Shown: piece by piece, positions 7,851 to 58,745 of the stretch
How positions within the stretch are numbered: the stretch's first letter is position 1
How the letters are laid out: every line of letters starts with the position of its first letter
IMG/VR virus record: IMGVR_UViG_3300032046_006283
Location: 1-64,000 of that record
Strand: one strand, 5' to 3'
Source of the DNA: a virus
Length of the DNA stretch: 64,000 bases
Translations under genes and position numbers: made by a program
Notes under the pieces: generated by a model
Told to the model about the DNA's origin: nothing
The model's database searches: none
Seen by the model: the letters and a program-made list of their open reading frames with translations, nothing else

Positions 7851-8759
7851 TTACGAATCTTTTTGTTTTTCTTCTTTTTTTTCTTCTTTTTCTACCTCTT
7901 TTTCTTTTTCTGTTTCTTCTTCTTTATCTTCTAATGCTTGGTTGTTTTCTTCCTCTATTTTTTTTCTTTTTTTCTTTCGCATTTTAGAACATTGCTCCGA
8001 AGTAAATTTTGAATCAAAAATAAATTGATAACAAATTTCCTCGAGCCAATCACAAATTCTATCAATAGGAATCAAATAACACATATGAGCAACATCTTCT
8101 TCCTCACCTTTTTTTGTGTCTATTGTTTCAACCAAAGTTGATATCCCTACAAGTTCATAACTCTCTTCTTCTTTATCATTAATAACTAAAAATATACCTC
8201 CGCCAGAATTACCATCAATAATAGGGCTACTACTCATCCAATACTTTTGTTTCTCTATTTCATCATCCATAGAAGTAATTTCACCTTTAGTAGGGACTGG
8301 AGGATGCCCTAAACTACAACCACAAGCATAAACTTTATCATAAATATTTATATCTTTTACATTCTTTGAATGCATTTTTACCACATACTTAATTTGTTCA
8401 TTACTTCTTAACTTTAGTAATGCAACATCCTGGTCTCTATCATATGCAACAATATCAGCATCAATTGCAATACGCCCTACATTTCTACTAAAATTTTGAT
8501 ATTTAAAAAATTCAACAGTTATTGTTGCTCGTTTTTCTTTCTTAATATCTTTTTGAAAAACAGTATTCCATTCTTTTTTAACTTCAATTGCTTTCTCAAT
8601 CACATGATAATTAGTTAAAACATAAGTCTCGTAATCTTCAGAATCCTTCTTTATAGGTTTAGAATAAATTACAGCACCACTTCCGCAATCTTCAGTAGTT
8701 TTAATAAGAGATAAAGTATATAACATTTCTTCATGCTTTTTCTTTGTAAATTTATTCAT
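7851..8759 (-). CDS. Trypsin-like serine protease
   Basis: Catalytic triad motifs VLTNYHVI, DVALLKL, GNSGGG. Confidence 0.9.
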   Translation of the reverse strand: MNKFTKKKHEEMLYTLSLIKTTEDCGSGAVIYSKPIKKDSEDYETYVLTNYHVIEKAIEVKKEWNTVFQKDIKKEKRATITVEFFKYQNFSRNVGRIAIDADIVAYDRDQDVALLKLRSNEQIKYVVKMHSKNVKDINIYDKVYACGCSLGHPPVPTKGEITSMDDEIEKQKYWMSSSPIIDGNSGGGIFLVINDKEEESYELVGISTLVETIDTKKGEEEDVAHMCYLIPIDRICDWLEEICYQFIFDSKFTSEQCSKMRKKKRKKIEEENNQALEDKEEETEKEKEVEKEEKKEEKQKDS

Positions 8760-11097: not shown

Positions 11098-14000
11098 TTA
11101 AATTTGTTTATCTTCTCCTCCAGGTACACCAGGAGTAACACCAAAATCAGGAAAAATATCTTCTTTGATTGGTTTCTTCTTTTTGAGCAAGTTGCTCTCG
11201 CCCCACTGATCTTCACCATAATCTGGAGCCTCAGATTGTGCTGGTTCTGAAGGATAACTTGGCCCTTGATCTTCTCTTAAAAGTAAAGAAGGGCTATTAT
11301 AATTTGTATCAGAAGGTTGACCATAAAACCCTTCTTTTTGTCTAAGATTTAAAGAACTAACTTTTAAATTTCCTAATTCATCAAGAAACGATTCATCAAA
11401 ATTTCTAATTAAATAATCTCCATAAACACCAGATATATGAGCTTCGTGTATTACTTTATCTATCGCAATCATTTTCTCTTGAGGAGTTTTAGCATTTTGT
11501 AAAACTTCTACTAAATATTTCTCTACTTCTATTTGGTTTTTTAAATCCTCGGAAGGAAATCCAGAAACTTCCCATCCATCCCATTCAATCCACCCTTCTA
11601 AAACAATAATAAAACTTGAAATAATTTCATCCATTAAAGAAATATCATAAAGACCTTTTGCTTCTTGTTTATATAATCTTATAAGATCTTGTTTTTTAAC
11701 ATATACTACTACATCCTCATATGCTTTTTTCTTTAAATTTAACGAAGCCATATCAATTCGAGGATCTAAATTATGTTCTACAATTGAATCATTTTTGTCA
11801 TGCCTTGGAGGATTTGTTCTACGTAATTTTTTATCTGTTTTATCAATTACTTGTGAATCTTCTGGAATTTCAGAGTCAGATATAATAGCTTTTTTCTTAT
11901 TTGTTACTTTTTTCTTTTTCGGCCAAGAATGAGGATAATCTAAAGACTTTAATATAGGATTTGAAACTGAACTTTTTCGAAATAAAAGAGAAGCTTCTTT
12001 CATTAAACCTTTAAATGTAGCTATTTTTTTCAAATTTAAACTTTTATAGAATGAGAATTCTTCAACTTCTTTAGGAGTATTAGGATTATTATCAGCATAA
12101 TAACGAACATCTATATCTTTATCTTTAGTCAACTCTGTTAATGTTTCAGAAGGAGTATTTGGATTCTCTGCAACTCTTGCACGAACACTTGAATATTTAT
12201 CTTTAGCTAATTCTGCTAATGTTTCTGAAAGAGTATTTGGATTCTCTGCAACTCTTGCACGAACACTTGAATATTTATCTTTAGCTAATTCTGCTAATGT
12301 TTCTGAAAGAGTATTTGGATTCTCTGCAACTAGAATGTGAACATTTCGGTTTTCATCTTTAGCTAATCCGGCTAAAGTTTCTGGAGAAGTATTTGGATTT
12401 TCTGCTACACATTGACGAATTCTCACCTTTTTATCTTTTGCTAATTCTGCTAAAATTTCTGGAGGAGTAGAAGGAGCTTCAGCAATTTCTAAGCGATCCC
12501 ACGCATCTTTCTCTTTTATAATCTCCAGAGGAGTAAAATATCTTTTAGGAGTTACAACTTCTTCTCCTCTTAATTTTAAATCTTCGGCAACAAGTTTTTG
12601 AAGATCCTTCGACAAATAAGACATTAGTTGTTCTGGAGTAGCTTGTGCTTTTATTTCTAAAGCATCTGAAAACCATTCTTTGATTCTAGGAAAATCATGA
12701 AACATTAAACCAGTGTTATGCTCAACGTCATTTATATGATCAATGATAGTTATAAGTTGGTTTGTATCAGAATTATTTTTAAGCTGAATTAAAGATTCAA
12801 CTATATGACCCCAAGGTTTACCACCATATTGAGAATACCATTTTCCTTTATTATATAATTCTTGAAGCTGTTCTAATGTTAAATCTTTAAAAGCAGGTAA
12901 ATTAAGTTTCTCTTTCCAATATTCCCATCCTAACAAAGTACCAAACCACTTTTTTCGTTTCAGTGATATTAATGCATCTCGATGTTTTGAGGCTTCTGCA
13001 TAAACCATTTTTGTAATTAGAGGAACATAAACTTCTTTAACTTGATTAACAATCATATCCTTATATTCTTTAGCATAAGAATTTGTTTCTAAATATTGAT
13101 CAGAAAGTAAAGAAACACCATAAAAGTCAAAGAAAAGTTGTTTGTCTATTTGAGCTATTTTACGAAGAGATAAAGATGATTTTACACTCATACCACTATA
13201 AAACAAAATAGAGTTTGCAAGATATTTTTGCAACTCTTTTAAATTATCAATTCTATTTACATTATTTATAATCTTTCGTTTATCGTCTTCATCAATATTA
13301 GATGGTTCAACTTTATCTAAAATAATTTGTTTTGCTGTTTCTAAATTTGTTGCGCTCCAAACATCTTGAGCAATATCTTCTAAAATAGATTTAACAGGTC
13401 CTTTATAAGCAGAATTAATTTTAGAAATAAAATCTTTCTTTGATTTTGTTACAAATTCAACGTTTTCAGCATAACTTCCCGCGATTATGTTAACACCCTC
13501 TGATAATCCTAAAGTGTCTATTAAATCTGAAAGATTGTCTGAAAATTCTTCAAATGAACCAGTACCTTCATACCATCTAATATATTGAGGTTTATAAATA
13601 TTGTATGTGCCTCTTGTTACTAAATCAAACTCTCTACCATTTGTAGGTAATCCAATAGTTTCAAACCAATGTATATGAGTCATCATAGGATCTGGATCAA
13701 AATAAATTTTTCCTTTATATATAGCCCAAAGTCCTTCATTTTCTCCAATATAAGAAAATCTTAAACTTCCAACAACTGGTGCCGGAGTTAAAGTAAAATA
13801 ACTTAAATCTACAAGTAACTGATTACGAATTGCCCAAGCAATATCTTCACTACGATCTTTTGAAATATTCAAATCGTCTTCTAAATGCAAAATTAATTCA
13901 AATATAAACACTGATCTATCTAATTCTTCATAAATTTCTCCAGCATCATTTAAACGTTCGTATTGTTTAACAAAACTTTCTACAAACTCTTTTTCTGTAG

Positions 14001-17000
14001 GTGTTAACATAACTTTTTTTATTATACCAAATTCATCTTGTGTTTTTTCTTGAGTTTTCTTTTTTAATGAACCGAAATGTGTTAATTTACCTTGTTCTTT
14101 CAAAAAAGTGATTAAATTATCCCAAGCTTCATAACTTTCTTTTTCTTGTTCTTTCGATATTCCTTCTTCAGCTGCTTTATCAAGATAATCTTCATATTCT
14201 ATTTTTAAATGCATAAGTATTGAAAAATCAATATGCATCATATTTATAACATTGTCAATAGCAATAATTTGTGAATTAATATCAAAAGCACTATTTAACT
14301 CTTCTAAACGTTGTTTCATTTCTTCTATAACTTGTAATTCACCTGCTTCTTCTCTAACACTTCCCGGATACCTTTTATACCATTTTAAATAATCTTCAAA
14401 AAAGAACATTAAATCTCGAACAACTTTATTTGTTAAACTATTTAACTTTTTTTCTATTTGTTCAAACTTCTGTATTTCTTTATCTGTTAAAGTTCCTTCA
14501 TTATATTTTTGTTCCAATTCTCGATATTGAATTTCAAGGTCATAAACTGCTTGAAGTTCATTAGGGGTAACAACTGCTTTCTTTCTCATACTTAAAGATG
14601 TTTTAAATTCTTTCATTTTTTGACTCATTGCAAATTCTATAATAGAAGCTTCATCTTCTGTTAATTGACCAAAATCTAAAGCTGTATTCATTTCTTTTTT
14701 GATTTGATTTATTTCCTCTTCATTTTTTGCTTTATCTATATTTTTAAAAAAAATACGTTCTTTCTTTTTGGAAGATACTTTTGTACCTGTAAAAAGTTTA
14801 TAAGCTTTTTCAACCCATTCTGATATATTTGTATCTCCCCAATTATTTATCAATTCATAAATAGATGCTTGTATTATATAAGCCGGAATTAATGTGTGTA
14901 AAGCCTTAGCCGCTTCAGTTCTATGAATACCATCAATTACTTTGTATCTGCCGTTGTCAGGCACCGTGATAATAGGTTTAATTGGTGTTCCTTCCTTGTA
15001 TAAAGCTACTAATTTTTGTACTTTTTTAGGATCAGCACCTAATTCATTCCATTCACTCGGATCTATTAAATTTGGATCTAACTCGGAAAGTTCTATATTT
15101 ATGTCTTTTATTCCTTCTTCTTCAAGGAATTTATCAATACCTTCTGGAGAATAATCTTCTAATAAATCTTCTTCTCTATTTGCTATTACTTTTCGAAAAG
15201 TTAAATTACTAACTTTTAAATTACCTAATTCTTCAAAAAAGGAGCTATAAAAATCTTCAACTAAATATTCTCCATATAATCCTGTTTCATGTGCTGTATT
15301 TATAGTGTGGTCTATTGCTATCATTTTATCTTGTGGTGTTTTAGCTAATTTCAACATATCAATTAAATATTTTTGATCCTTTACTAATTTCGGAGTGCTT
15401 TCATATTCAGGATAATATTGAACGTTTGATGCAATCAAAATTGTTAAAATTCTTATAAATTCTGAAATAATTTCATCCATTAATTCTTCATCATATATAC
15501 CTTTAACTTCTTGCTTATATAATTTTTTTAAATCCTGAGTTGTTATACTTGATGTTGGATATTCCTCAGGCACTTCTATTTTATAAAAATCTTTAAATTC
15601 TCTTTTTAATTTATCAGCAAAAACCATTTCTTTTATATCTGTTTCAAAAGTTAAATAACTTTCTTTTTTCAAAACTTCTTTTTTACATTCATCACAAATT
15701 CCATGACTTATATATGGTAAATATTTAGAATACTCTTCATTAGTTAAATGCTTAATAATATGTCTTGTACTTCTATCAAATATTCCTTTACACCAAGCGC
15801 ATATACCATATTTTGAATAATCTAAATTTTCTATGTCAATTTCTTTAGTTTCTTCTTGCGGAACTTTTTCCATAGGAAGGTCTTTCTGCATATCAGATCT
15901 CATATTTAAACTACCAATTTTTAAATTACCTAATTCTTCAAAAAAAGTTTCATCAGAATCTGTTAAAGTCTCTCCATATGTTCCAGAAGCGTGAGCAGTA
16001 TGTATTACTTGATCAATAGCAATCATTTTTTCTTGAAGTGTTTTTGCTTCTTCTAGAATCCTTATTAATTTTTTTGTTTGTTTTTCTTGTTCTGGATCGT
16101 ACCACTTATTAAATTCCTCTAACAAATAAATAAACTTTGAAACAATTTCATTTAACAATTTTTCATCATATATACCTTTAGCTTCTTGTGTATATAATCT
16201 TATTAATTCTTGTTTTGTAACTAAAGAAGATGCAATTCTATTAAGAAAAGTTTCTAAATCTTCTTCTTCTTGAGCTTTTCTTTTCATATTTAAACTACCA
16301 AAAGGTTTTGTAACGGGTCTTTGGAAACTTTTCCAAACTTCTTTTCCAAGTTCTTTCCAAGTAGGAAATTTTTTCTTTTCTTTTGGTTCTGGTTCACCAA
16401 ACTCTTCAACTGGAATAGGAATCTCTTCTTCTGGTTCTATATCTAATTCAAATGTTAAAGGTTTTGTTTCTTTCTCTTCTAAAGGTTTTTCAATAGGTTT
16501 TTTAACTTCTACAGGTTCTTCTTTTTCAATTATAGGTTCTTTCTTTAGCATCTCAACTTTAGGAACTTCTTTAACTTCTTCATGTTTTGTCATTCTTATT
16601 TCATCTGGTAAAAAAGGAGAAGTAAAACCTACTGTAAATACAGTAGCAATATTTCTAGAAACATTTGTCAACTCTGTAATTTTTACATCATAAGAACCAT
16701 CTGCATTTTTCTTCTTTATAATCCCTTTTCCTTTTAAAGTACCTCCTGGACCTTTTCTTGCAGCTCCAAAAAATCTGGTAGTATCAAAAACAACCTCATC
16801 ACCTACATTGAATTCTTTTCTTTCTGCAGCAACTTTATTTTGAGCATTTTTCTTAAAAATTTGAGAAATAGGTGAAAAAAATTCTTCGCTTTGTACTGGA
16901 AATTCATTAAATCGAAGTTTAAGTTGTTGTGGAATTATAAATTGTTCTTCAATATTTTTTCGTATAGTTTCTTTTAAACCTTTTTCATGTTTAAATTCAA

Positions 17001-18393
17001 AAGGTTTTTCAAAAGCTTTATATTTATCTTTTTGTTCTTCTTTATCCTTTTCTTTTTTTAGTTTTAATTTATCCATAAATGTAGGTTCTGAAAATACTAT
17101 ATCCATTTGTACAAACTCTTGAATTAAAGGTTCGTTAGCTTCTTTCTTTCTCATATTCAAACTCGCTGTCATTTGAGAAGCTGGATTATCTTCCCATAAC
17201 CAAGGACTTCTTTCTATCCTTTCAAGAGAAGGAAATACTATATTATAACCTTGATCCGCTTCTCTATCTTCCCACCTATCTTCTCCTTGTTGATAAGTAT
17301 GCCAAGATTGATGTTCTCCTTGAATTTCATCTAAAGAATTGTCTGGAATAGGTTCAGAAACGGTGGATGCTTGTCTCCTAATTACTTTAAAACTTTTTAA
17401 TCCTCTAAATACTTTAGCAATGATACCTCTTTGAATAACTTCTTTAGCTAATTCTATTTCTTTTTCAGTTACATCTGTCTTCTTACCTCTTGCTATATCC
17501 CATATTTCATCTGGACTGTATTTGTTCAAGAGGTCGGAGTAAGGAACATCTATTATATTTGGAATTTTTTCTTTTAAAGTTTCTTCTTCTTTCGTAATCA
17601 AAAGATCTTTTAATATTTCTTTTTCTTTTTTAGAAGGTTCTCTTAATCCTAAAGATTCAGCCATAGCTTCTTCAATTGCTTTTAATACTAAATCTTTTGA
17701 AAATGCTTCTTGTAAACCATATTCTTCCATAACATAAATTTCCCAATTTTTAATAAAAGATTGTGGAAATTTATTTGAAAAATCTGCAATTAATCCATTT
17801 ATAAAATGCATACTTACATTTTTCTTTTTCGCTATATGATTTACAAAATAATAAACATCTATTCGAGAAACAATTTCAGAACCATATTTATTAAGTTCCT
17901 TCAAAATTTCATCCACATATAATGACCAATCTTGAGCTTCTTTTTTCATATTTAAACTTCCACATATTCCAGGACCATAAGAAGGAGATCCTGGAGTTGA
18001 ATCATATTCCATTGGATTAGAAACATTTGGATCTATGTTAAATATATTACCTTGCTCATCTGGATAATTATGAAAAGGAAATCTTAGTTTTGGTTTTTTT
18101 GGACCTTTAGGATATTCATCAGACTTTCCTGGTTCATAAAAATTTTCTTGGAGTGTTTCAGCATCTGCTTTTTTAAAATTTAAAGAAGCGACTTTTGAAA
18201 TATAAGGTAAAATTGCATTCCTTAATTCATTTGGTGATTCAAACCAAGTACCTTGGAGTTTATCCAATATATATTTTTCATAATAAGGATAATTTGGATG
18301 TCCCGGAGGAACACCATATTCACCTAAAAGTTGAGAAACCAAATTAGGATCTGCAACAATCCAATTTGGTTCCCTTCCAAATCGCAATTTCAT
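11098..18393 (-). CDS. Giant 2431-aa mosaic protein (ParB-like domain, LRV repeats, triplicated helical domain, KOW/SH3-like module)
   Basis: Uninterrupted ORF; ParB-like KVIDGIHRTEAA; recurring SLNMxKKA linkers. Confidence 0.8.
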   Translation of the reverse strand: MKLRFGREPNWIVADPNLVSQLLGEYGVPPGHPNYPYYEKYILDKLQGTWFESPNELRNAILPYISKVASLNFKKADAETLQENFYEPGKSDEYPKGPKKPKLRFPFHNYPDEQGNIFNIDPNVSNPMEYDSTPGSPSYGPGICGSLNMKKEAQDWSLYVDEILKELNKYGSEIVSRIDVYYFVNHIAKKKNVSMHFINGLIADFSNKFPQSFIKNWEIYVMEEYGLQEAFSKDLVLKAIEEAMAESLGLREPSKKEKEILKDLLITKEEETLKEKIPNIIDVPYSDLLNKYSPDEIWDIARGKKTDVTEKEIELAKEVIQRGIIAKVFRGLKSFKVIRRQASTVSEPIPDNSLDEIQGEHQSWHTYQQGEDRWEDREADQGYNIVFPSLERIERSPWLWEDNPASQMTASLNMRKKEANEPLIQEFVQMDIVFSEPTFMDKLKLKKEKDKEEQKDKYKAFEKPFEFKHEKGLKETIRKNIEEQFIIPQQLKLRFNEFPVQSEEFFSPISQIFKKNAQNKVAAERKEFNVGDEVVFDTTRFFGAARKGPGGTLKGKGIIKKKNADGSYDVKITELTNVSRNIATVFTVGFTSPFLPDEIRMTKHEEVKEVPKVEMLKKEPIIEKEEPVEVKKPIEKPLEEKETKPLTFELDIEPEEEIPIPVEEFGEPEPKEKKKFPTWKELGKEVWKSFQRPVTKPFGSLNMKRKAQEEEDLETFLNRIASSLVTKQELIRLYTQEAKGIYDEKLLNEIVSKFIYLLEEFNKWYDPEQEKQTKKLIRILEEAKTLQEKMIAIDQVIHTAHASGTYGETLTDSDETFFEELGNLKIGSLNMRSDMQKDLPMEKVPQEETKEIDIENLDYSKYGICAWCKGIFDRSTRHIIKHLTNEEYSKYLPYISHGICDECKKEVLKKESYLTFETDIKEMVFADKLKREFKDFYKIEVPEEYPTSSITTQDLKKLYKQEVKGIYDEELMDEIISEFIRILTILIASNVQYYPEYESTPKLVKDQKYLIDMLKLAKTPQDKMIAIDHTINTAHETGLYGEYLVEDFYSSFFEELGNLKVSNLTFRKVIANREEDLLEDYSPEGIDKFLEEEGIKDINIELSELDPNLIDPSEWNELGADPKKVQKLVALYKEGTPIKPIITVPDNGRYKVIDGIHRTEAAKALHTLIPAYIIQASIYELINNWGDTNISEWVEKAYKLFTGTKVSSKKKERIFFKNIDKAKNEEEINQIKKEMNTALDFGQLTEDEASIIEFAMSQKMKEFKTSLSMRKKAVVTPNELQAVYDLEIQYRELEQKYNEGTLTDKEIQKFEQIEKKLNSLTNKVVRDLMFFFEDYLKWYKRYPGSVREEAGELQVIEEMKQRLEELNSAFDINSQIIAIDNVINMMHIDFSILMHLKIEYEDYLDKAAEEGISKEQEKESYEAWDNLITFLKEQGKLTHFGSLKKKTQEKTQDEFGIIKKVMLTPTEKEFVESFVKQYERLNDAGEIYEELDRSVFIFELILHLEDDLNISKDRSEDIAWAIRNQLLVDLSYFTLTPAPVVGSLRFSYIGENEGLWAIYKGKIYFDPDPMMTHIHWFETIGLPTNGREFDLVTRGTYNIYKPQYIRWYEGTGSFEEFSDNLSDLIDTLGLSEGVNIIAGSYAENVEFVTKSKKDFISKINSAYKGPVKSILEDIAQDVWSATNLETAKQIILDKVEPSNIDEDDKRKIINNVNRIDNLKELQKYLANSILFYSGMSVKSSLSLRKIAQIDKQLFFDFYGVSLLSDQYLETNSYAKEYKDMIVNQVKEVYVPLITKMVYAEASKHRDALISLKRKKWFGTLLGWEYWKEKLNLPAFKDLTLEQLQELYNKGKWYSQYGGKPWGHIVESLIQLKNNSDTNQLITIIDHINDVEHNTGLMFHDFPRIKEWFSDALEIKAQATPEQLMSYLSKDLQKLVAEDLKLRGEEVVTPKRYFTPLEIIKEKDAWDRLEIAEAPSTPPEILAELAKDKKVRIRQCVAENPNTSPETLAGLAKDENRNVHILVAENPNTLSETLAELAKDKYSSVRARVAENPNTLSETLAELAKDKYSSVRARVAENPNTPSETLTELTKDKDIDVRYYADNNPNTPKEVEEFSFYKSLNLKKIATFKGLMKEASLLFRKSSVSNPILKSLDYPHSWPKKKKVTNKKKAIISDSEIPEDSQVIDKTDKKLRRTNPPRHDKNDSIVEHNLDPRIDMASLNLKKKAYEDVVVYVKKQDLIRLYKQEAKGLYDISLMDEIISSFIIVLEGWIEWDGWEVSGFPSEDLKNQIEVEKYLVEVLQNAKTPQEKMIAIDKVIHEAHISGVYGDYLIRNFDESFLDELGNLKVSSLNLRQKEGFYGQPSDTNYNSPSLLLREDQGPSYPSEPAQSEAPDYGEDQWGESNLLKKKKPIKEDIFPDFGVTPGVPGGEDKQI
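12075..12500 (-). repeat. Leucine-rich-variant (LRV/HEAT-like) 24-aa repeats, including an exact 72-bp tandem duplication
   Basis: VAENPNT(L/P/S)xETLAELAKD about six times; KYSSVRARVAENPNT repeated identically at DNA level. Confidence 0.85.
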
Positions 18394-22198: not shown

Positions 22199-22199
22199 A

Positions 22200-22967
22200 T
22201 TATTCTTCATCACTTTCATTGTCTATAATTTTTGCATCAGCAATTACCATATCTTTAGGATTTAACAATGGGGTTATTTTTTCATCTAATTTTTCAATAA
22301 ATCTTTCTTTAACTCTATCTCGAACTACAGGATCATCTATTTCTTCGATTAACACATCTACAAAATCTTCAATAAACTTTTTTATTCCTTCTTTAATGTT
22401 TTGTATCATAACAATGTTCACATTAACTACTCCAGGACCTTGTTCTATTTTCATGTGAGTCAACAAATCCTTAGTAAGGCCTTTCATAATTTCATCAATT
22501 GCAGATGTTACTTCTTGTATTTCTTTTCTATAAAAAAGACTTTTTTCACTTTCTGGTTTACTTTCCAAACTCTTTTTAAGTGCTAAAAGTTCCCAAAGAT
22601 TTTTAATACGTGCATCGTATAATAAGTTCACGGTTTTTATTTTATTCAGAGTTTCATTATATTTTTGTTGATACAATTCAACAACTGCTGGACTAAAATC
22701 TGTCAATGTAAGTTCCCGTTTCTTTTCTTCAATTTGAGCTGCCTTTTTTGGATCGCAATGATGTTTATGACTATTAATATTAGTGCCAGTCAAGCCTCCA
22801 GGAATCTGAGATCCCCACTTATCAATAATTTCATGATAAGTCATTGTACCTTCTAAAAGAACAATAGTAATTTCATTTAAAAAAGAAGACTGACAAATCT
22901 TACATCTTTTAGAAACTCTAAGGAGTCCTTTAACTTTAGGTTTTTCTTGATTTTTTGATTCCGCCAT
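22200..22967 (-). CDS. Putative terminase small subunit
   Basis: RCKICQ...HKHH Zn/HTH N-terminus, helical body, position upstream of terL. Confidence 0.5.
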   Translation of the reverse strand: MAESKNQEKPKVKGLLRVSKRCKICQSSFLNEITIVLLEGTMTYHEIIDKWGSQIPGGLTGTNINSHKHHCDPKKAAQIEEKKRELTLTDFSPAVVELYQQKYNETLNKIKTVNLLYDARIKNLWELLALKKSLESKPESEKSLFYRKEIQEVTSAIDEIMKGLTKDLLTHMKIEQGPGVVNVNIVMIQNIKEGIKKFIEDFVDVLIEEIDDPVVRDRVKERFIEKLDEKITPLLNPKDMVIADAKIIDNESDEE

Positions 22968-25668: not shown

Positions 25669-27695
25669 TATTTTTCTTCCCGCGCTATAATACTTCCTAC
25701 ATATGCTAGTACATTTTCAGCACATTCATCACAATATCCATAAACTTCTTTTAACCTTTTCTTTAGTGCATTTAATTTCTCAAGTGTATCATCATCTTTT
25801 ACTGTTGAAACAGCACCAGAAAGTTTAATATTGTGTTTCTGGTCCTTAAATAATTTCAACTCCAAAGCACGGTACAATCTTTCATTTGCCTTATAATCAA
25901 ATGTTTTCTTTTCAATAGTTAAACTTGCAATGTAGTTCATAATTTGAGTTCTAAATTCATCCTTTCGAGATTCAGATATATCAATTTCTTCCTCAATAGA
26001 TCTCATTAACCTTTCATCGGGTTCCTCATATTGTTTAGTAAATTCATTTCTAACCTTTTCTTTCTGAATATACGCTCTAACATTTTCTATATAACTATTG
26101 CAAAGGCGTGCTAAAGCACTATCATCTGCACACATTGCACGCTGTATTTCATTTTTTACAATTTCTGTATATTCCTCTTTGACAAGAGCAATAATTTCTT
26201 TGTACCTTTTTTTCACATCAATAGAAGAAATTAATGAATAGTGATCTAAGCCTTCTTCAAATTCTCTCAAAACTAAAAATGGATTTATACAATTTCCAGA
26301 TTCTACATGCACTAAAGCATTTGATATTTTATCTTGAACAAAACGAGGAGAAATTCCTTCCATACCTTCACCAATAGATTCATCTTTAATTTCATCTAAA
26401 GCTTCTTCATTAAAATCTGGAATTGTTTTTCCATTATATAACTTCATTTTATTTACTAAAGTCAAAGAAGCTTTCTTAGGATCTTTCAAACGTGTTAAAA
26501 TAGCAAACATCGCAGCCACTTCTAATGTATGCGGGGCCATATGTTTACCTACAATATTTTTCGGAGAAAAATCTTTTTCATAAATTTTAATTTCATTATT
26601 CAATTTTAAACAATATGGAATATCAATCTTTATTGTTCTATCTCTCAAAGCTTCCATATATTCATTAGATTGTAATTTTTTAAATTCAGCTTGATTTGTG
26701 TGACCAATTATTACTAAATCAATATCAGTCTGTGCAAAATTCTTTGACTTAATTTTATGTTCCTGACTTGCACAAAGCAAATCATATAAAAAAGCAACAT
26801 CTAATTTAAGAATTTCTATAAACTCTATAATACCTCTATTAGAAATGTTAAATTCTCCAGTAAAACTAAAAGCTCTTGGATCGGAATCAGAACCATAAAT
26901 TGCTAACTTTCTATAATTAACATCTCCTGTTAATTCTGTACTATCCTGATTCTTTTCATCTTTCGGTTGAAACGTCCCTATTCCTATTCTATCTTTTTCA
27001 GAAAATGTAATTCGTTTTACAGTTATATGTTCTAAAACTTTCGCCCAATCTCCTTTATAAAAATCCATCAAATTTTTAAATATATATCTACATGGAGGAC
27101 ATAATTCACTTTCTGCCATCAATTTTTTATCTGGAAACTTATCATAAAACTTTTGACGTAATTCTAAAGGAATCAAATGAACAGGGTCTTCATTCATTGG
27201 ACATCTAAATTCTTTATCAGGACCAAAAATATTCTCTGTTTCTGGAGTTGATTTCCAACCAAAAGTAAAAATAGCTCCTGCATCAGTTTTAGAATATTCT
27301 TCAAGACCTTTTTTCAAAAGACGGACAATAGTTGACTTAGAAGATCCTACAGGTCCATGCAACAAAATAATTCGTTTCTCAGGACCATAACCTAAAGAAG
27401 CTGAACGAAACAAATTTACTAAATTCATCAAAGACTCTTCTAAATCATAAATTGCGTCCTTTCCATTATTAAGGGGGTCACTAAAAAATTTATAAATTAT
27501 TACTCTTTTCTTACCAATTGTTTTTTCTTCGGTACCATAAAACAAAATCATATTATACAATCTACTAAAAGCTGTTTGTATCAAATTTGGATTCTCTTCA
27601 AGTTTTTCAATATAGTCTTTAAAGGAACCACGCCAGTGCAACTTTTTATAAAGCTCAGGATTCTGCGCTTCCTTCAGTTTTTCTACTATATCCAT
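25668..27695 (-). CDS. prkA: PrkA/YeaG AAA+ 'serine protein kinase'
   Basis: LLHGPVGSSKS, FQPKDEKNQDSTELTG, SNRGIIEFIEILK, GMEGISPRF. Confidence 0.93.
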   Translation of the reverse strand: MDIVEKLKEAQNPELYKKLHWRGSFKDYIEKLEENPNLIQTAFSRLYNMILFYGTEEKTIGKKRVIIYKFFSDPLNNGKDAIYDLEESLMNLVNLFRSASLGYGPEKRIILLHGPVGSSKSTIVRLLKKGLEEYSKTDAGAIFTFGWKSTPETENIFGPDKEFRCPMNEDPVHLIPLELRQKFYDKFPDKKLMAESELCPPCRYIFKNLMDFYKGDWAKVLEHITVKRITFSEKDRIGIGTFQPKDEKNQDSTELTGDVNYRKLAIYGSDSDPRAFSFTGEFNISNRGIIEFIEILKLDVAFLYDLLCASQEHKIKSKNFAQTDIDLVIIGHTNQAEFKKLQSNEYMEALRDRTIKIDIPYCLKLNNEIKIYEKDFSPKNIVGKHMAPHTLEVAAMFAILTRLKDPKKASLTLVNKMKLYNGKTIPDFNEEALDEIKDESIGEGMEGISPRFVQDKISNALVHVESGNCINPFLVLREFEEGLDHYSLISSIDVKKRYKEIIALVKEEYTEIVKNEIQRAMCADDSALARLCNSYIENVRAYIQKEKVRNEFTKQYEEPDERLMRSIEEEIDISESRKDEFRTQIMNYIASLTIEKKTFDYKANERLYRALELKLFKDQKHNIKLSGAVSTVKDDDTLEKLNALKKRLKEVYGYCDECAENVLAYVGSIIAREEK

Positions 27696-27745: not shown

Positions 27746-30700
27746 TTACAAAGCTAATTCTAATTGATTTCCCTCTTCTACAATCTCACTTAAAGATTTA
27801 ATATATGCCCATAATCCTGATCCTAATTCTCGAATTGCATCAAATACATTAGCTTCTTTTGTAGAACCTTCTCGTTTTGGAAACATAGTAAGAACTCGTT
27901 GCTGAACCTCTTCATTCAATGAACTCGCTCCACGTTCTGCTTTTTCTAAATAGATCTTTGCATCTTCACCGAATTTTTCCAAAAGCTTTTCCACTCTCCA
28001 TTTATCCGAAGGTTTAAATTTCTTTTCTTTTACAGAAGTGTCTAAATACAAGAAAAATTCTCCAAGATCAATTACTTGAGTCTGAGCTTGTTCAACCAAA
28101 GAGGAGAGCTTTTCTATTCCTTCTTGTAATTCAGCGGCCTCTGTTACTGATCCATGTTCTTCCTGAATCTTTCTAATTTGTTCTTCTACTTTTGCCCTTG
28201 CTTCATCTACAAGAGATTTAATTTCGCCTAAGCGTTGTTTGTGATTTTGAACTTCATGAAAAGTTTTCTGCATTTCAGGAGTAGCAACAGGAGCTTCTTT
28301 TACTTCTTCTGATGAAGGTTCGCCGTGGGGCTTTGTTTTAAGTTCTTTAAACTCCGTTTTAGGTTTTTCTTTAACATCAACTTCTTCTAGTGCAAATCTT
28401 AATGAAGCTTCTTTTTCTAATAAATACTCACCACCTAAAATATCTAATTCTTCTTTATATTTGTCCAAAGTAGGCCGAAAATGAACTTGCGTTTGAGGAC
28501 TTAAAGTTCCAAACACACTTTCAACTTCTTCTATCCACTTAGAAATTCTTTTTGCATTTTTTGCAGGATCTAAAAGTTTAACTTTCCCTGAATCCCAACC
28601 AGATAATACATCTAAGCCTCTATTTATTTTATCTAATATTTCTTGTATTGTTTCTTCTGAAACACTTTCTTTCTTCATAACTGAAAGTTTAGAAGCTTCT
28701 TTTTCTGTTTCCTCTTCTGGTTCGTATTCAACAGCAGGTAATACAACTTCTTCTAACTTCTCTGCGTGTTCTGTTTCATCCTCTGCCATATCTTTAAGAG
28801 CTTTTTCTGCTTTAGGACATTCAACTTCTTTGGCCATATCATTATACATTTCAGCGCCTTCTTGTTCTTCTTCAATATGCTCCTCTACCATTTTTTCAGA
28901 AAGATCAGCTGTTTTCTTTATTGAAGCTTCTTTTTCTTCTGTTTCTTCTAAATTAGTAATTAAATCATCAATATCCTTTCTATACCATTTCTCCATTAAA
29001 CTTAAATGATTTTTAAAATAATCTAACACTGTCTGAGCAGCTCTTTCAAGAGCATCATAATTTCTTTCGTCTGTAAATTCTTCTAAATCTGAAGCAACTT
29101 TGTTCTTCACATTTTGAGGAACACTTCTAGACCTTGTGACTGCTTTAACAACATCAATAGCAAAATCTTCATCTGTAAGAACATAATCAGCAAAAATTTC
29201 AAATCTTTCTTCTGGAGTTTTTTCAAAAAGATCAGCTGTTTTTTCTTTTAAAAAAGCATAAGCAGCCTTTTCAAGATCAACCAAAGAATATAACATTTTT
29301 CTTCCATCTTCCAAAAGAACTTCATAAGCAGTATATACTATTCCCGTTCTTGGTGATTTATAATTTGGAATAATATCAACAACGCTTCCTTTTAAACCTG
29401 CAATAGTTTTTACCTCATCACCTACTGTAAAACTTTTTTCAGCCTTTTTTCGTATTTCTTGAACTATTTCGTTAGAAGATTTACCTTTTGTTGAATCAAA
29501 ATCTTTTTTCTGAACTATTTTTTCCAAATTTTCTTTCTTTGCATGCACTACAGGATAGTGTTGATCTTTAAGTTTCTTGTCAATAATTTCTTCTAACTCT
29601 TTTCTGGTCATACGAGAAACTTCTGAAGTAATTTTAGTTAAATCAAAATCTAAAGGAATTTGGCCTGCTCTTACATAATCTTCAACAAGCATTCTTAAAC
29701 GCTCTATTGGAATTTGTTTTCCTGTTTCGTCGGTTTCATGATAACCAGTAGGTTCAGCTTTTTTCTTTATTGAAGCTTCTTTTCCAAACTTTGCTTCTTC
29801 GTAATCTTCTTCTTTAAATTCAAATCCTGGATGTTTTTCTTCTATAATCTTTTTAATTTCATTAAATGATTTTCCTTCTTTCACGCCTTCAGTTACAATT
29901 TCATAAATAAAAGGTGCAATGCCTTCTGCTGGAGAAGCTTTTTTAACCTTTTTATTTGAAGAAGCTTTCTTAGAAAAAACAAAAGTATCTTTATCAGCAT
30001 GACCACAACCTATTAACTGACCTCCACAAATAGGGCATCTTTCAATATCGCAACCAAAATGATGAATGTTACCTAGTTTATTTACTATATTACAATCATG
30101 GCAGCGTTCATTCACATCGAAATATGATGTATCTCTAAGATATCCTTTTCCTTTCAAATTAATATATTCTTTTGTACAGGTTTCCGTTTTAGGATCTGTC
30201 ATTTCTAACATACACTCTTCACATTTCACTGCTCTTTTTTGTAACGAAGCTGTTTTATGTCTATCTCCTTTTCTATGCCAAATACCTCCAGCAACATAGT
30301 TCATACATTTATCATGACTCCAACCTTTTTCTCGCATACAGGTTTGAACCATACTTTCAAGTTCTTCTTTTTCTGGAGCGGTTTTGGTTAAAGAAGCTGC
30401 TTTTTCCATTTCTTCTATTCTTTCACTTCCACAATAAGGACATTTAAATTCATTTTCTACCCATTCTTCATGAGTCATAGTTTCTCCACAGTCTAAACAT
30501 AGGCCCAGTCTATATTCTTCTTCTTCTTCCTCTGATTCTTCTTCCGCAGCAGATTTAGTAGTAGTAGGTATTATAGAAGAACCTCCTCTAAACATTTTTT
30601 GAACAGCTCTATCTTCTTCAGGAAGAATTCCTTGATTTGATTCTTCATAAGGAACACCAAAATCTGGATCTACATCTGTTTGTTTTGCAACACTATAATC

Positions 30701-31984
30701 TGGATCTGGATCAGTAAAAGGAACTAAAGTCTTTTCGTCTCTTAAACTCTTTTTCACTAATTTATCAATTTTTTCATCAACTGAAGCCATAGGAGCTGTA
30801 GGAGCTACCATAGGTCCTCCAGGTAAAGTTTCTTGAGTAACACCTCCACCAGGAGTAGCTTGAATGTTTAAATCAGCACTTGGAATAGGAGCAGTTTTCA
30901 TTCCTGTTTCATCTGTTAATATAGCATCAATTCCTGTAGTAGAATCAATAGTATAAATCTTTCCTTGATATTCTACCTGCTGTCCCGGAACAGGAACACC
31001 AGCAGCTGTTTTCTTTTTAGTAGAAGCAATCTTTTTCACCTGAATTTGAGAATATTCTTCTTTTTCTCCATCCTCAAATTGAACAACAAAGTTTCCACTC
31101 TCAGGACTTATATAAGTAATCACTGCAAGTTCTCCATGTCTTTCAGTTCCTAGTGAATCGACCTGAATTGTTTCTCCTTCGTAATATAATTCCTCAGCTG
31201 TTTTCTTTTTAGCAACAATTTCTCTAAATCTTGTAAAATCTTTTTCACGAAAATGCATTTCAGGAACAATAAAGTTTGGTTCAGGAGCTCCAAAAACTTT
31301 ACCAGATGTAAAACTCTGAACGCCTTCTTTTGTAAAAGGAATTTCACTACCTTGTAAAGTCTTAAAAATCTTTGGAAGCATAACTTCTCCAGAAGGAGTA
31401 ATACCTGCAACAGCAACCACCCTAAATCTAACATCATTATTATCTACTGACTCTATAGTATATTCTGCATATTTAACATTTTGAGGCCCACCTTCATAAA
31501 TTGCTTCTCTCATTCCTCTTTGAAACTTTAATTGAGGATTAAACATACCAACAGAAACTGCAAACTTTCCTAATATATGTGCAACCCTTTCTAAAATTGC
31601 ACGATCCACCCACTGACTAGGAACATAGCCAGGGACTATATTTTGATTTAAGTATAAATCAGCATTCCTATTTATTTTACTTATATTTGTAGCTACTTTA
31701 ATTATACGATCTTTAATAAGAACAGAGCTACAAACAGGACAAGAAACAAAACTTTGGCCATTACGAACAGCTTCGATAAATTGTTTTCGTAATGAAGAAG
31801 CACCAAAAGATTTTTTACATCCTTGGCATGCATAAGATAAAACAACTTCTTTCATATTATCTTTAACATATTTTTTTGCTTCTTCTTTCTTTTGAGATTG
31901 TTTACTTGCAATCTTTTTTAATCTTTCAGCTTTAAACCACTTTCGGGTTCCTTTATTTCCTTTTTGTTCTTTAGGTATCAACAT
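27746..31984 (-). CDS. Large 1412-aa mosaic protein (Zn ribbons, SH3/KOW-like, ferritin/rubrerythrin-like, coiled coil)
   Basis: CQGC..CPVC; CLDC..CPYC; CHDC..HHFGCD..CPICGGQ; EEEQEGAEMY..DETEH; repeated KEASxKKxA linkers. Confidence 0.8.
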   Translation of the reverse strand: MLIPKEQKGNKGTRKWFKAERLKKIASKQSQKKEEAKKYVKDNMKEVVLSYACQGCKKSFGASSLRKQFIEAVRNGQSFVSCPVCSSVLIKDRIIKVATNISKINRNADLYLNQNIVPGYVPSQWVDRAILERVAHILGKFAVSVGMFNPQLKFQRGMREAIYEGGPQNVKYAEYTIESVDNNDVRFRVVAVAGITPSGEVMLPKIFKTLQGSEIPFTKEGVQSFTSGKVFGAPEPNFIVPEMHFREKDFTRFREIVAKKKTAEELYYEGETIQVDSLGTERHGELAVITYISPESGNFVVQFEDGEKEEYSQIQVKKIASTKKKTAAGVPVPGQQVEYQGKIYTIDSTTGIDAILTDETGMKTAPIPSADLNIQATPGGGVTQETLPGGPMVAPTAPMASVDEKIDKLVKKSLRDEKTLVPFTDPDPDYSVAKQTDVDPDFGVPYEESNQGILPEEDRAVQKMFRGGSSIIPTTTKSAAEEESEEEEEEYRLGLCLDCGETMTHEEWVENEFKCPYCGSERIEEMEKAASLTKTAPEKEELESMVQTCMREKGWSHDKCMNYVAGGIWHRKGDRHKTASLQKRAVKCEECMLEMTDPKTETCTKEYINLKGKGYLRDTSYFDVNERCHDCNIVNKLGNIHHFGCDIERCPICGGQLIGCGHADKDTFVFSKKASSNKKVKKASPAEGIAPFIYEIVTEGVKEGKSFNEIKKIIEEKHPGFEFKEEDYEEAKFGKEASIKKKAEPTGYHETDETGKQIPIERLRMLVEDYVRAGQIPLDFDLTKITSEVSRMTRKELEEIIDKKLKDQHYPVVHAKKENLEKIVQKKDFDSTKGKSSNEIVQEIRKKAEKSFTVGDEVKTIAGLKGSVVDIIPNYKSPRTGIVYTAYEVLLEDGRKMLYSLVDLEKAAYAFLKEKTADLFEKTPEERFEIFADYVLTDEDFAIDVVKAVTRSRSVPQNVKNKVASDLEEFTDERNYDALERAAQTVLDYFKNHLSLMEKWYRKDIDDLITNLEETEEKEASIKKTADLSEKMVEEHIEEEQEGAEMYNDMAKEVECPKAEKALKDMAEDETEHAEKLEEVVLPAVEYEPEEETEKEASKLSVMKKESVSEETIQEILDKINRGLDVLSGWDSGKVKLLDPAKNAKRISKWIEEVESVFGTLSPQTQVHFRPTLDKYKEELDILGGEYLLEKEASLRFALEEVDVKEKPKTEFKELKTKPHGEPSSEEVKEAPVATPEMQKTFHEVQNHKQRLGEIKSLVDEARAKVEEQIRKIQEEHGSVTEAAELQEGIEKLSSLVEQAQTQVIDLGEFFLYLDTSVKEKKFKPSDKWRVEKLLEKFGEDAKIYLEKAERGASSLNEEVQQRVLTMFPKREGSTKEANVFDAIRELGSGLWAYIKSLSEIVEEGNQLELAL

Positions 31985-32027
31985 TTTAAAACCTCCAATA
32001 TTTTATATTTATATTTTATTTTCTTTT

Positions 32028-34256
32028 TTAAAAAACCTCAGGAGACTCAAGATCTGATTCTTCTTCTTCCACTTCTTCTGTTTCCTCTTCTTCTGGTTCT
32101 ATAGGTTGTTCTGAAGGAGAAACTTCAGCACCTTTTGGTTCTTCTTCTTCTTTTTTTTCTTCAGTTACTCCTTCTTGATCTCCAAAATTTATACTAAAAT
32201 CTTTAGTTTCTGGATTTAAAGTAATTGTTATTTCTTCAAGTTCTTCCTCTTCAGGTTCTTCTTCTCCATCTAATAATTTTTTAGGCTCTCCAGGTAATTT
32301 TGGATGACCTGTTTCTTTTACGGTCCAATTCATAGGCTGAAGTTTACTTGAACTTCCTGCGCCTCCCCCACCTCTTAACGCTTCCATTCCATCAGCTGTT
32401 TTCTTCAAATTCTCTTTTTTCGCTCTACCATATAATTGTACTACTCGTTTTGCTATTCCAAAAAGATGTTGAAATTCTTTTTCATTTACTAAATATCCAT
32501 TTTGATCTAACCATTCTCTTAAAGCTTGTTCAACATGTTTTATCTCATTACCAAGATACCCAAGAGTTTCAAGAAATTTTTCACTCTCTACTAATTCTCT
32601 TTCTACTCTAATTAAAGATATTTCAACTGCTGTTTTTATAGTTGCTTCTTTTATAATACTACTAATTTTTTCATTAATTGCTTCTAATGGAATTTCTTTC
32701 TCAATTCCTTCACCTTCTTCTTCCATCTTATATAAACGAGTATAATAATCAGGAAGTTCATTAAGATGGTCTAAAGCAATCTTTGCATAATTTGTAGCAT
32801 TGCCTTCACCAACAACTCCAGAGTGTTCAATTTCAACATTCATTCCTTTTGTAAATTCATCTAAATTCACGAGCTTCCAATCAACACCTAAAGAATCTCC
32901 TATACGTTTTGCTTCATCAGCTGTAAATATGTTTATAAGATTATCGTGTTCTGCTGTTTTCTTAGAAGCTTCTTTCAATAAAACAATACTATATTCTTCT
33001 TCATTATACCATAGTTGCTCGTCTTCGTTCCCAGATCCTGTAATTTCAATAGTTTCGTGCATATCACCATCATTACCAAGGTATTCATCAACTTGAGCAA
33101 TTGTTACACTTGGAGCAATAGTAGTATTCTCTTCTTTATCCATTATTTGAACTTTATCACCAACCTTAAATGAAATCTTCTTTATCGAAGCTTCTTTTTC
33201 AACTTCTTCTCCAAGTTCCTTTTCTATCTCTTCTTCTGTTTCCTCTTCAGGTTTTTCTAAAGATTCTTCAACAGGACTTGATGGAGTATTTAATTCTTTT
33301 AAATATTTTAAAGCTTTAGGATTGTCAAACCACATAATAACATTTTGAGATTTTTTATTTTTTGCAAATTTTAATAAATTTTTTCCTTTTAACCAAGTTT
33401 TAATTGCTTCACTATAATTACCAACACCTTCATTTTTATCTTTTTCAACTAAAAAATCATATAATTCTTTAGATGTTTCAGGTGTAAGATTAATACCAAA
33501 TGCATCTAAAACTTGATCGTGTAAATCTTCAACATCACTATCAACAAATTGTGCTCTCTTTTTTAAAGAAGCTTTTTCATTTACTCTTTTAGTATAAACA
33601 ACTTTTTCTAATTGATTTCTATTGTATGAAGCTTTGCACTTACACTGAATTTTTCCAACAGTCTTCAAACCTTGCAAAGAAATTTCTTTATTACAAACAG
33701 AACAAGAAGCAACTGCTCTTATGGTATTATCTTCAAACCATGAAGAAGGCATATCTTTAAAAATAACTTGAGAACGATCTGGAACAGCAGATCTAACTTC
33801 TCCTATCTTCCCATTATATTTTTCATAAAGATGACCAAAAGGAACATTTATTTGAACTACTGTTCCTGGAGTATAGGAAATTTTTTTGGAAGAAGTCTTT
33901 TCTATTTTTGTTCTTTCTTCAATAATTTCCTCTTTTTTCTGTATTGAAGCTTTTACTTGACGTATAATTTTATCATCTTCCCCTGTATAAACAACAACCC
34001 AGCGCTCATCTTTACCATTAGCATTTTTTATTGTTTCAATAACCCATATACTTCCAGCATCAGCATCTGTTTTCTTTTTATATATATCATAGCCTACTTT
34101 CTCAAAATCTTCTTCATTTCCTTTAAAAAGAATAGCACCTCGTTTTCGTAAAACATTAACTCTTTCATTATATTTTACTAAATTAAGAGCCTTATTAACA
34201 AAATTTGGAATTTCTTCCATTTTTCTTACCTGATTCAAATATGATTTATTTACCAT
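32028..34256 (-). CDS. ~742-aa mosaic protein with DUF5661-like and KOW-like modules
   Basis: GMNVEIEH...KIALDHLNELPDYYTRL; FKVGDKVQI; KEASxKK linkers; acidic tail. Confidence 0.75.
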   Translation of the reverse strand: MVNKSYLNQVRKMEEIPNFVNKALNLVKYNERVNVLRKRGAILFKGNEEDFEKVGYDIYKKKTDADAGSIWVIETIKNANGKDERWVVVYTGEDDKIIRQVKASIQKKEEIIEERTKIEKTSSKKISYTPGTVVQINVPFGHLYEKYNGKIGEVRSAVPDRSQVIFKDMPSSWFEDNTIRAVASCSVCNKEISLQGLKTVGKIQCKCKASYNRNQLEKVVYTKRVNEKASLKKRAQFVDSDVEDLHDQVLDAFGINLTPETSKELYDFLVEKDKNEGVGNYSEAIKTWLKGKNLLKFAKNKKSQNVIMWFDNPKALKYLKELNTPSSPVEESLEKPEEETEEEIEKELGEEVEKEASIKKISFKVGDKVQIMDKEENTTIAPSVTIAQVDEYLGNDGDMHETIEITGSGNEDEQLWYNEEEYSIVLLKEASKKTAEHDNLINIFTADEAKRIGDSLGVDWKLVNLDEFTKGMNVEIEHSGVVGEGNATNYAKIALDHLNELPDYYTRLYKMEEEGEGIEKEIPLEAINEKISSIIKEATIKTAVEISLIRVERELVESEKFLETLGYLGNEIKHVEQALREWLDQNGYLVNEKEFQHLFGIAKRVVQLYGRAKKENLKKTADGMEALRGGGGAGSSSKLQPMNWTVKETGHPKLPGEPKKLLDGEEEPEEEELEEITITLNPETKDFSINFGDQEGVTEEKKEEEEPKGAEVSPSEQPIEPEEEETEEVEEEESDLESPEVF

Positions 34257-35074
34257 AGTCAAATGCCTCCATTAATTTATTTTTAACTTCATCTATATTT
34301 CTTAAAATATCATCTTCCCAAAATCTTAAAACTACAAAACCTTTTTCCTTTGCTAACTGTTCATTTTTAACATCTCTTTCTTTTTGCCCTAATTGAATTT
34401 TATTAAAACTACTAAACTTTTTTGGATTTCCATGCCAATAGTCTCCGTCAACTTCTACAAGAAAAGGAGAATTTAGAATATGGAAATCAGCAACGTGATT
34501 ACCAACACGATATTGTTTCTCATAAGGAATATGTAGAAATATTAAAATTTCTTCCATTTTAAGTTCAGGTTTAGTATCTTTAAAAGGACCTTTATAATCT
34601 TTAACATATTGTAGCATATATTTCTGCTGTTCTTTTCTTTTTTGTATTCCTTTTTCACTTTTATAAAACTCTTTAAGAGAATTTTTTAACTTTTTTCTTG
34701 TTTTATCTAAAACAAATATGTCCTTCAAGAGAATTACTGGTTAATTGTTTTGCTTTTTCAGACCTAAATTTGCCTGTATTAATTCTTCGTAATTTTTCCA
34801 TTATCCATTTTGGACGTGGTATATCTTTTTTTGAATCACTTATTCTTTTAACACCTTTGTTTGTTTCTTTTGTCAATCCTTTATTCCATGCTTTTTGACC
34901 TATATGAGAATCCCTTTTATTTCTTAAACAATACCCATTTCTTTTAACAACATTACCAATAGTTGTTTGAGTACAATCCATTATTTTTGCTAATTTAATA
35001 GTACTTAATTTATCTTCAACATATTGTTTACAAATTTGCGTTTCTTGTTCTTTTGTAAACATTCTATTTGACAC
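34246..35074 (-). pseudogene. HTH-NUMOD-DUF559/Vsr endonuclease split by a 1-nt frameshift
   Basis: Removing one T near 34714 joins ORFs 34703-35074 and 34246-34728 as ...LEGHIVLDKTRKKL..., giving the architecture of the 10171 and 53590 paralogs. Confidence 0.7.
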
Positions 35075-58152: not shown

Positions 58153-58295
58153 CTAATTTATCTCCTCTATTTCTTCATATTGAGTATCAAATTTTTGTAG
58201 ATCAATATCTTGGATTATCCCCATTGTTAACATTACTAAATATAAAACGATAAAGTAAATAATAATTCGCTTTAATATTTTTTTAATATTTATTT

Positions 58296-58733: not shown

Positions 58734-58745
58734 AATTTTATCCTC

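Follow-up and report, generated by a model that had tools for sequence, protein, structure and literature searches.

Polyvalent proteins, as described in the available parts of Iyer, Burroughs, Anand, de Souza and Aravind 2017 (PMC5512222), were proposed to be processed by peptidase domains embedded in them and were predicted to be packaged and delivered with the DNA. Here we describe a locus of similar organization in the IMG/VR virus record IMGVR_UViG_3300032046_006283 (73,124 bases, rated 33% complete), of which 64 kb, hereafter the window, were analysed. The window is about 29% G+C, carries every gene on the minus strand (to which all window coordinates below refer), and is assigned by its Pfam and PHROGs annotation to a large phage. 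Three giant open reading frames (ORFs) code for mosaic proteins: family A (1412 aa, 27746..31984), family B (742 aa, 32028..34256 with an ATG start at 34256, or 744 aa if a TTG start at 34262 is used) and family C (2431 aa, 11098..18393). They share a peptide of about eight residues, hereafter the tag, with the approximate consensus [A/S/G]-[S/N]-h-[K/R]-K-x-A (h, hydrophobic), weakly followed by Q, E or D. The tag is real and specific to the giants, marks the boundaries of their modules and lies outside the folded cores. Our leading interpretation, which we hold tentatively, is that it may be a recognition tag for head assembly, serving as a cut site of the maturation protease and maybe as a loading signal too.

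Like the polyvalent proteins, the giants combine many unrelated small domains in a mosaic polypeptide encoded beside portal or terminase genes, and include a ParB-like stretch (PMC5512222, available parts). DUF5661, LRV repeats, the ParB-like stretch, Zn ribbons, a helical module and swapped inserts place them within the range of 2-15 unrelated domains, and they stand in the late or virion gene context of a portal-terminase phage, with the terminase between the giants and, in a relative, further tagged proteins encoded beside the portal and among the tail genes. Packaging and delivery with the DNA may be predicted for them as well. While the giants fit the polyvalent proteins in architecture and context, the only hallmark domain found is the ParB-like PHROG match (E 1.3e-6). 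They differ from the proteins of PMC5512222 in that no embedded peptidase domain was detected in the three giants at Pfam E <= 0.1, and in having an 8-residue tag at boundaries and termini; the available text of that paper describes no conserved junction peptide, and the word “linker” occurs in it 0 times. Nor were such junction tags found described in the literature searched, which had subscription journals outside its coverage.

In phage T4 the cut motif of gp21 has the form A-x-E. In SPN3US, 9 head proteins are processed by the prohead protease at a motif of three residues, the motif of SPN3US gp245 and phiKZ gp175 substrates ends in Glu (L/I-x-E), and T4 N-terminal propeptides, besides being removed, target proteins into the prohead core (PMC10052503, available parts). 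The N-termini of the 80alpha capsid and scaffold proteins mimic the signal of ribosomal protein L27 and are cut by the host enzyme Prp, which recognizes MLxx(D/N)LQ(F/L)F'A(S/H)KK (PMC9405229, available parts), and encapsulin cargo is directed by targeting peptides such as PLTVGSLRRGG and DGSLGIGSLKG (PMC7925596, available parts).

A peptide tag at the module boundaries of three giant proteins

The earlier note on this DNA, made from the letters alone, had listed motif strings in the three giants, all of which are present in the translations; AKKENL indeed occurs in both the 1412-aa and the 742-aa proteins, and the LRF variants are there as well, including the MKLRF start of the 2431-aa protein. 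It had further proposed that three genes flanking the terminase share one peptide code that is not seen in metabolic or replication proteins. The large terminase gene (19513-21426), adjoined by a GIY-YIG homing endonuclease, does lie between the giants, and the code was borne out by regular expressions (regexes), a position matrix and shuffling, applied to 100 ORFs (23,959 aa), of which the giants make up 4,587 aa and the other 97 ORFs 19,372 aa. All 9 matches to [AGS]SL.[MLF][KR] fall in the 2431-aa protein, and K[EKAT]A[ST] matches 8, 3 and 1 times in the three giants and 4 times in four other ORFs. The matrix, with 10 columns anchored on the final Ala, was trained exclusively on tags from other genomes; scanned as a joint motif over the whole contig, at >=13 bits all 15 of its matches were in the giants, with 0 in the remaining 97 ORFs, and at >=9 bits the numbers were 20 vs 4.

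When the residues of each giant were shuffled with composition kept (300 shuffles, neighbouring matches merged), the mean number of matches was 0.05-0.43 against 5-7 observed, and the observed count was reached in 0/300 shuffles, while the other ORFs, pooled, yielded 5 matches at >=9 bits vs 2.26 +/- 1.53 expected. Leaving one genome out of the training set at a time gave, at >=13 bits, 18 matches in the giants vs 0 elsewhere for one syntenic IMG/VR record (G001; 106,979 bases, 55% complete) and 19 vs 6 for another (G002; 168,267 bases, 90% complete), the 6 outside matches belonging to three further polyvalent, portal or tail-module proteins and one DNA polymerase ORF. On these counts the tag is real and specific to the giants. 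It comes in two dialects, A-S-(I/L)-K-K-T-A and S-L-N-h-R-K-K-A, the latter being that of family C, and its logo is fixed in part by the regex with which the sites were gathered.

Alignment of the 1412-aa protein with nine metagenomic homologues (10 sequences; 45-62% identity to it in the best local alignment) reveals five conserved blocks, with unalignable, lineage-specific inserts between them. A tag is present in 10/10 sequences at the end of block 1 (aa 256-265, 31190..31219, 17.3 bits) and at the starts of block 2 (aa 321-330, 30995..31024, 12.5 bits), block 3 (aa 736-745, 29750..29779, 21.5 bits) and block 5. At the last position the window's protein has S-L-R-F-A (aa 1191-1198, 28391..28414), which aligns with S-K-K-T-A, S-K-K-I-A and S-R-K-K-K-A in the orthologues; judging by this alignment, the LRF motif is a variant of the tag. 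The end of block 3 reads K-K-K-T-A in 5/10 sequences and K-K-E/D-x-L-E-K in the other 5/10. Further family A tags lie at aa 529-538 (30371..30400, 17.3 bits), aa 578-587 (30224..30253, 8.9 bits) and, before a rubrerythrin-like block, aa 1019-1028 (28901..28930, 20.4 bits), together with a double tag-like stretch at aa 672-684 (29933..29971, regex matches at 672 and 681) and a degenerate tag at aa 1095-1107 (28664..28702), the coordinates of these two having been obtained by arithmetic. As for the domains that had been suggested between the tags, Zn ribbons are visible as CxxC pairs, and the ferritin/rubrerythrin-like pair was recovered as a rubrerythrin match, but one under the cut-off (17.9 vs 22.8 bits); the proposed KOW or SH3-like modules found no such family in Pfam at E <= 0.1. 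A look-up of the N-terminal block of this protein in the Atlas scored <=0.78 and was not usable.

In family B, tags are located at aa 122-131 (33870..33899, 15.1 bits), 230-239 (33546..33575, 16.5 bits), 357-366 (33165..33194, 14.1 bits), 430-439 (32946..32975, 18.3 bits), 538-547 (32622..32651, 12.2 bits) and 616-625 (32388..32417, 14.2 bits). The DUF5661 domain attributed to this protein was confirmed by Pfam (E 2.8e-18, profile positions 1-65 of 65; aa 451-516, 32715..32912) and is an independently defined module: it is bracketed by the tag just ahead of it, at 430-439, and the one past it, at 538-547. Families A and B have two modules in common, at 60-66% identity, with a tag or a tag-like basic stretch at their ends.

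The 2431-aa protein contains the ParB-like stretch, LRV repeats and three copies of the helical module. Its tags were located by regex and matrix at aa 69-78 (18160..18189), by matrix at aa 145-154 (17932..17961, 13.9 bits), 699-708 (16270..16299, 16.5 bits), 1265-1274 (14572..14601, 18.6 bits), 1739-1748 (13150..13179, 19.2 bits), 2118-2127 (12013..12042, 10.6 bits) and 2216-2225 (11719..11748, 15.3 bits), and by regex at aa 410-419 (17137..17166), 827-836 (15886..15915), 1441-1450 (14044..14073), 2134-2143 (11965..11994) and 2346-2355 (11329..11358), those at 827-836 and 2346-2355 each standing at the end of a helical module copy. Across ten aligned copies of this module, a tag or tag-like stretch is found on both sides, and a relative encodes the module as a stand-alone 171-aa protein with a tag on either side. 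The AlphaFold model of the latter has a core (approximately residues 21-130) with a predicted local distance difference test score (pLDDT) of 81-94, while the N-terminal tag is at about 50 and the C-terminal tag below 50; in Foldseek, no PDB entry matched the helical module model at E <= 0.001. Among 19 giants, 14.9% of 505 BLAST alignment ends fall <=5 aa from a tag, vs 3.5% of random points. Overall, the tag marks module boundaries and lies outside the folded cores.

Such extensive exchange of modules exactly at tags, one of which has even been expanded in tandem, is what would be seen if the repeat acted at the DNA level, as microhomology for in-frame module exchange. However, the conserved Ser of the tag is encoded by TCT, TCA, TCG, TCC and AGT, that is, by five codons from both the TCN and the AGY families, and the codons for the same residue are identical between 20 tags in 56.0% of 616 comparisons, vs 58.3% predicted from the codon usage of the same genes. 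Since tag codons vary freely and are no more alike than codon usage predicts, selection acts on the peptide and not on DNA, which argues against a recombination signal; we disfavour that explanation and regard it as highly improbable.

A profile of the helical module, searched against 1.84 billion representatives, retrieved 122 proteins, of which 23 carry at least one tag at >=9 bits. Nineteen of these are outside the training set, are representatives of clusters below 50% identity and hold 45 tags in 21,093 aa, including giants with 7 and 9 tags. No tag was found in the other 99 of the 122 (27,702 aa), mostly weaker matches to the profile; because of these, it is clear that the helical module exists without the tag, and that the tag is a lineage code.

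These distributions also bear on the idea that the tag is a passive linker, a preferred flexible and soluble joint copied along with module flanks and having no specific partner. It is true that tags occupy low-confidence segments between folded cores, that modules move with their flanks, and that in one orthologue a tag has been triplicated by local duplication. A mere joint, however, would not be expected to stay fixed in position across 45-62% identical orthologues while adjacent linker residues vary, to keep its Ser across both codon families, to recur as the same 8-mer in the giants of 19 further clusters while being absent from 99/122 matches to the module profile, or to be kept at protein termini, where it is needless, and we consider a passive linker unlikely.

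Two minor features of the giants may be recorded here. In orthologue P0008 (residues ~571-590), it is the tag before block 3 that is triplicated in tandem (S-I-K-K-T three times). C-terminal endings peculiar to each giant family are also retained from genome to genome (-G-G-E/D-x-K-Q-I, -E-Q-L-E-L-x-L and -P-x-V-F; window ends 11098, 27746 and 32028), and these endings could be separate signals.

Tagged head proteins in relatives

The 73-kb contig itself, from a record only 33% complete, contains no capsid, portal or scaffold gene. The larger syntenic record, G002, holds head and tail genes that are not on the window's contig, including those for sheath and baseplate; its capsid protein matches phrog_2522 (E 9e-54) and an HK97-fold NCBIfam family. 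Adjoining the capsid gene is a 1444-aa protease-scaffold giant whose N-terminal part matches the head maturation protease phrog_18299 (E 9.6e-11). Four orthologues of this giant carry 3, 3, 3 and 1 tags, and in 4/4 of them the protease domain closes with the invariant sequence K-L-E-K-I-A-S. The portal candidate of G002, named from sequence and position only, carries an intein and has one tag match. Further relatives keep a tag near residue 50 of the protein encoded immediately upstream of the protease-scaffold orthologues in their head loci. Thus, the expectation that head proteins should carry the motif holds, in relatives, for the protease-scaffold protein and, with one match, for the portal, and fails for the full tag in the capsid protein.

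Tags also reappear in G002 at the ends of separate proteins. A giant of 1185 aa with LRV repeats, which adjoins the portal gene, has a tag at its start and another 5 residues before its end; a 518-aa gene of the tail cluster, corresponding to a module inside the window's 2431-aa protein, starts with a tag; the module that follows the family C tag at aa 1739-1748 is a separate gene starting with a tag; and proteins of 297 and 117 aa carry tags as well. The other record, G001, has family C divided between two ORFs, the second of which begins with a tag. Replication or endonuclease proteins of G002 account for only three matches at >=11 bits. The 1185-aa protein (L010, 15322-18879 in G002) includes, by eye, a sigma-factor-like stretch, and it is followed by a gene that PHROG assigns to a sigma factor.

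Tags at protein starts invite comparison with the staphylococcal phage 80alpha, in which several head proteins likewise have a short N-terminal signal, built on an L-N-L core and with Ala right behind the cut (PMC9405229, available parts). By this comparison the tags would copy the cleavage signal of a host protein and be cut by a host enzyme: N-terminal tags such as M-K-K-L-N-M-R-K-K-L and the internal K-L-N-L-[R/K]-K-T-A share the K-L-N-L core and the spacing of Ala with MLKLNLQFF'ASKK and with the 80alpha N-termini. The resemblance ends there, as the Q-(F/L)-F before the Prp cut is replaced by [R/K]-K-x, so that the tag has no F-F before the cut and does not conform to the Prp motif, and as most tags are internal. 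Moreover, Prp (PF04327) was found in 0/3 phage records, and we view mimicry of a host protease signal as very unlikely.

In the capsid homologues the matrix for the full tag shows no N-terminal preference (at >=9 bits, 5/114 N-termini vs 7/114 for the rest of the protein). A reduced form, [LIVMF]-x-K-x-A, or h-x-K-x-A, was examined post hoc, on homologues that are not independent of one another: it is present in the first 40 aa of 93/113 full-length capsid homologues, vs a mean of 6.2/113 and a maximum of 15 after shuffling of the N-termini, and reaches 33.6 per 1000 aa in the N-termini vs 0.54 in the rest of the same proteins. The site mostly lies 5-6 residues ahead of a conserved D-P-Y. This reduced motif links the tag to the head in a manner that is suggestive only. 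The nearest cultured relative of the capsid protein is that of Phage G (40% identity), whose gp27 is annotated without an N-terminal extension.

Cutting or docking, and candidate enzymes

We tentatively favour the tag as a recognition site for head assembly on several grounds: its specificity, its placement at boundaries, its selection at the protein level and its position outside the fold; its presence in the protease-scaffold giant, the K-L-E-K-I-A-S end of the protease domain in that protein, and the h-x-K-x-A motif at capsid N-termini; and the location of the giants on either side of the terminase, with further tagged proteins encoded in G002 by the portal and among the tail genes. A large, uncultured myovirus would then have, in the three ORFs, polyvalent proteins associated with its virion, each giant consisting of small modules in series that fold on their own and are exchanged freely. 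The giants would be taken into the prohead, where the phage maturation protease would cut at or beside the tag, with Ala probably at P1 or P1'; the modules released by cutting would travel with the DNA, and where a protein begins with a tag, that tag would function as a short propeptide.

Such a role would be comparable to that of the head-internal, ejected proteins of T4, SPN3US and phiKZ, which carry a short prohead-protease motif (PMC10052503, available parts), the role of the giants being a predicted one. If the tag serves in loading as well as in cutting, it would recall the T4 propeptides with their two functions. Unlike those substrates, however, the tag has a conserved Lys(-2) and Ala(0) and is found 7-12 times per chain, between modules, whereas the T4, SPN3US and phiKZ cuts mainly remove N-terminal propeptides (same source). 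A Glu-ending cut motif was not found, in that Glu ahead of the tag is common in the window's genome but is not conserved in the orthologues, and the window's contig, from a record 33% complete, contains no prohead protease of the gp21, gp175 or gp245 fold.

A number of observations weigh against a head-assembly tag of this kind. All of the head evidence comes from relatives whose best local alignment to the 1412-aa protein shows 45-62% identity; the full matrix finds nothing special at the capsid N-termini, and the reduced motif was tried post hoc on related sequences. The fold of the scaffold-fused protease domain is unconfirmed, with a mean pLDDT of 40.1 in its AlphaFold model, and a PDB sequence search gave no match for this domain. 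Tags located 2-6 residues from a C-terminus, and those on both sides of the 171-aa protein, make little sense as pure cut sites, and we infer, rather than observe, that the giants are packaged and cut, as well as which bond is cleaved and by which enzyme.

Where a tag stands right at the end of a separate ORF, a targeting role suits it no less well than cleavage. Such tags would be accounted for if the tag were a docking peptide, binding cargo to a common prohead receptor (candidates are the HK97-fold capsid protein, by way of its inner face, and the scaffold or portal) while the giants stay intact and multivalent. In the 122 representatives, sites of the core L-[NSGQ]-[MLIF]-[RK]-[KR] begin among the first 10 residues in 5 proteins, where even placement would give 0.99, and among the last 15 in 4, one of them maybe a fragment, where it would give 1.48. 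The doubly tagged 171-aa module points the same way, as does the HK97 fold of the capsid protein: encapsulin cargo, too, goes inside an HK97-fold shell, by means of peptides with a small-Ser-Leu-basic core (PMC7925596, available parts). The tag core, small-S-[L/I/M]-[K/R]-K, resembles encapsulin G-S-L-[K/R], and G-S-L itself occurs in 5 tags of the 2431-aa protein. Yet this likeness spans only 3-4 residues, and encapsulin peptides are terminal and one per cargo (same source, available parts), whereas the window's tags are internal and terminal ones are found in some relatives. Cutting is also the better fit for the tagged protease-scaffold protein, with the invariant site that closes its protease domain, and docking without cleavage seems to us a distinctly less probable explanation. 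Phrased by analogy with encapsulins, the tag, as a short Ser-hydrophobic-Lys-Lys peptide, might be a cargo-loading code of a tailed phage that docks each module inside an HK97-fold capsid or on its scaffold, cutting being secondary or absent; the peptide would be reusable at N-termini, at C-termini or between modules, and this one rule would let a lineage load exchangeable effector modules amounting to several thousand residues per genome. We find this version doubtful.

Should the tag prove to be a code for loading or cutting, one could read from sequence what the mature heads of an entire clade of uncultured large phages contain. Giant unannotated ORFs would then resolve into defined modules with predictable ends, of use in expression and structural studies, and phage capsids would be connected with the cargo loading of encapsulins in a way open to testing.

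Returning to cleavage, the classical candidate for the enzyme is the protease domain that is fused to the scaffold in relatives. The other candidate is encoded in the window, which contains two proteases, S49 (6694-7587) and trypsin-like (7851-8759). The trypsin-like protein (7851..8759) is HtrA/DegP-like and lacks a PDZ domain; its His52, Asp111 and Ser185 are conserved in three orthologues. In 3/3 genomes its gene follows that of the family C giant in the downstream direction, separated from it by an exonuclease gene and, in the window, by a DUF559 endonuclease ORF as well. HtrA-family enzymes prefer small aliphatic residues at P1, which would fit Ala(0). A complex prediction combining residues 1-262 of this protein with a 41-residue junction stretch gave a score of 0.01 and a mark of 0.32, and a PDB sequence search returned no match for it either. 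We list the HtrA-like protein solely as a candidate tag protease. Its C-terminal 45 residues form a highly charged Lys/Glu tail after a basic K-M-R-K-K-K-R-K-K.

The S49 peptidase is labelled a head maturation protease by PHROG. It was set aside in that capacity, being SppA-like (TIGR00706, E 8.9e-29) and scoring 14 bits against the ClpP-related head-maturation model, which has a cut-off of 120. By eye, it has an N-terminal hydrophobic signal followed by a lipobox-like L-V-S-C, and the G002 orthologue has an N-terminal hydrophobic anchor too. With such a lipoprotein-type signal, the S49 protein is probably exported as a lipoprotein protease rather than acting in the head.

Neighbouring genes

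A complete PrkA, DUF444 (YeaH-like) and SpoVR trio occupies 23135-27695 (minus strand), between the terminase region and the 1412-aa giant. We set it aside as a processing system for the tag, because the trio is not at this position in G001 and G002.

Scattered among the giants and the terminase are many ORFs of homing-endonuclease type (DUF559/Vsr-like, GIY-YIG and HNH), at 10171-11088, 21410-22219, 34246-34728, 34703-35074 and 53590-54351, all on the minus strand. Endonuclease ORFs stand between giant genes in the relatives too, and LAGLIDADG-type inteins are found there in the terminase and in the portal candidate.

Replication and repair genes of the window include those for RecA and a family A DNA polymerase (54348-56873, minus strand), the latter fused to an N-terminal domain of the uracil-DNA-glycosylase superfamily. 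At 57685-64000 (minus strand) there is a cluster for synthesis of a 7-deazaguanine-type base, comprising a FolE2-type GTP cyclohydrolase, QueC, a radical-SAM enzyme and DUF366. A DNA methylase and a phosphoribosyltransferase adjoin the cluster; this suggests that the DNA of this phage is modified.

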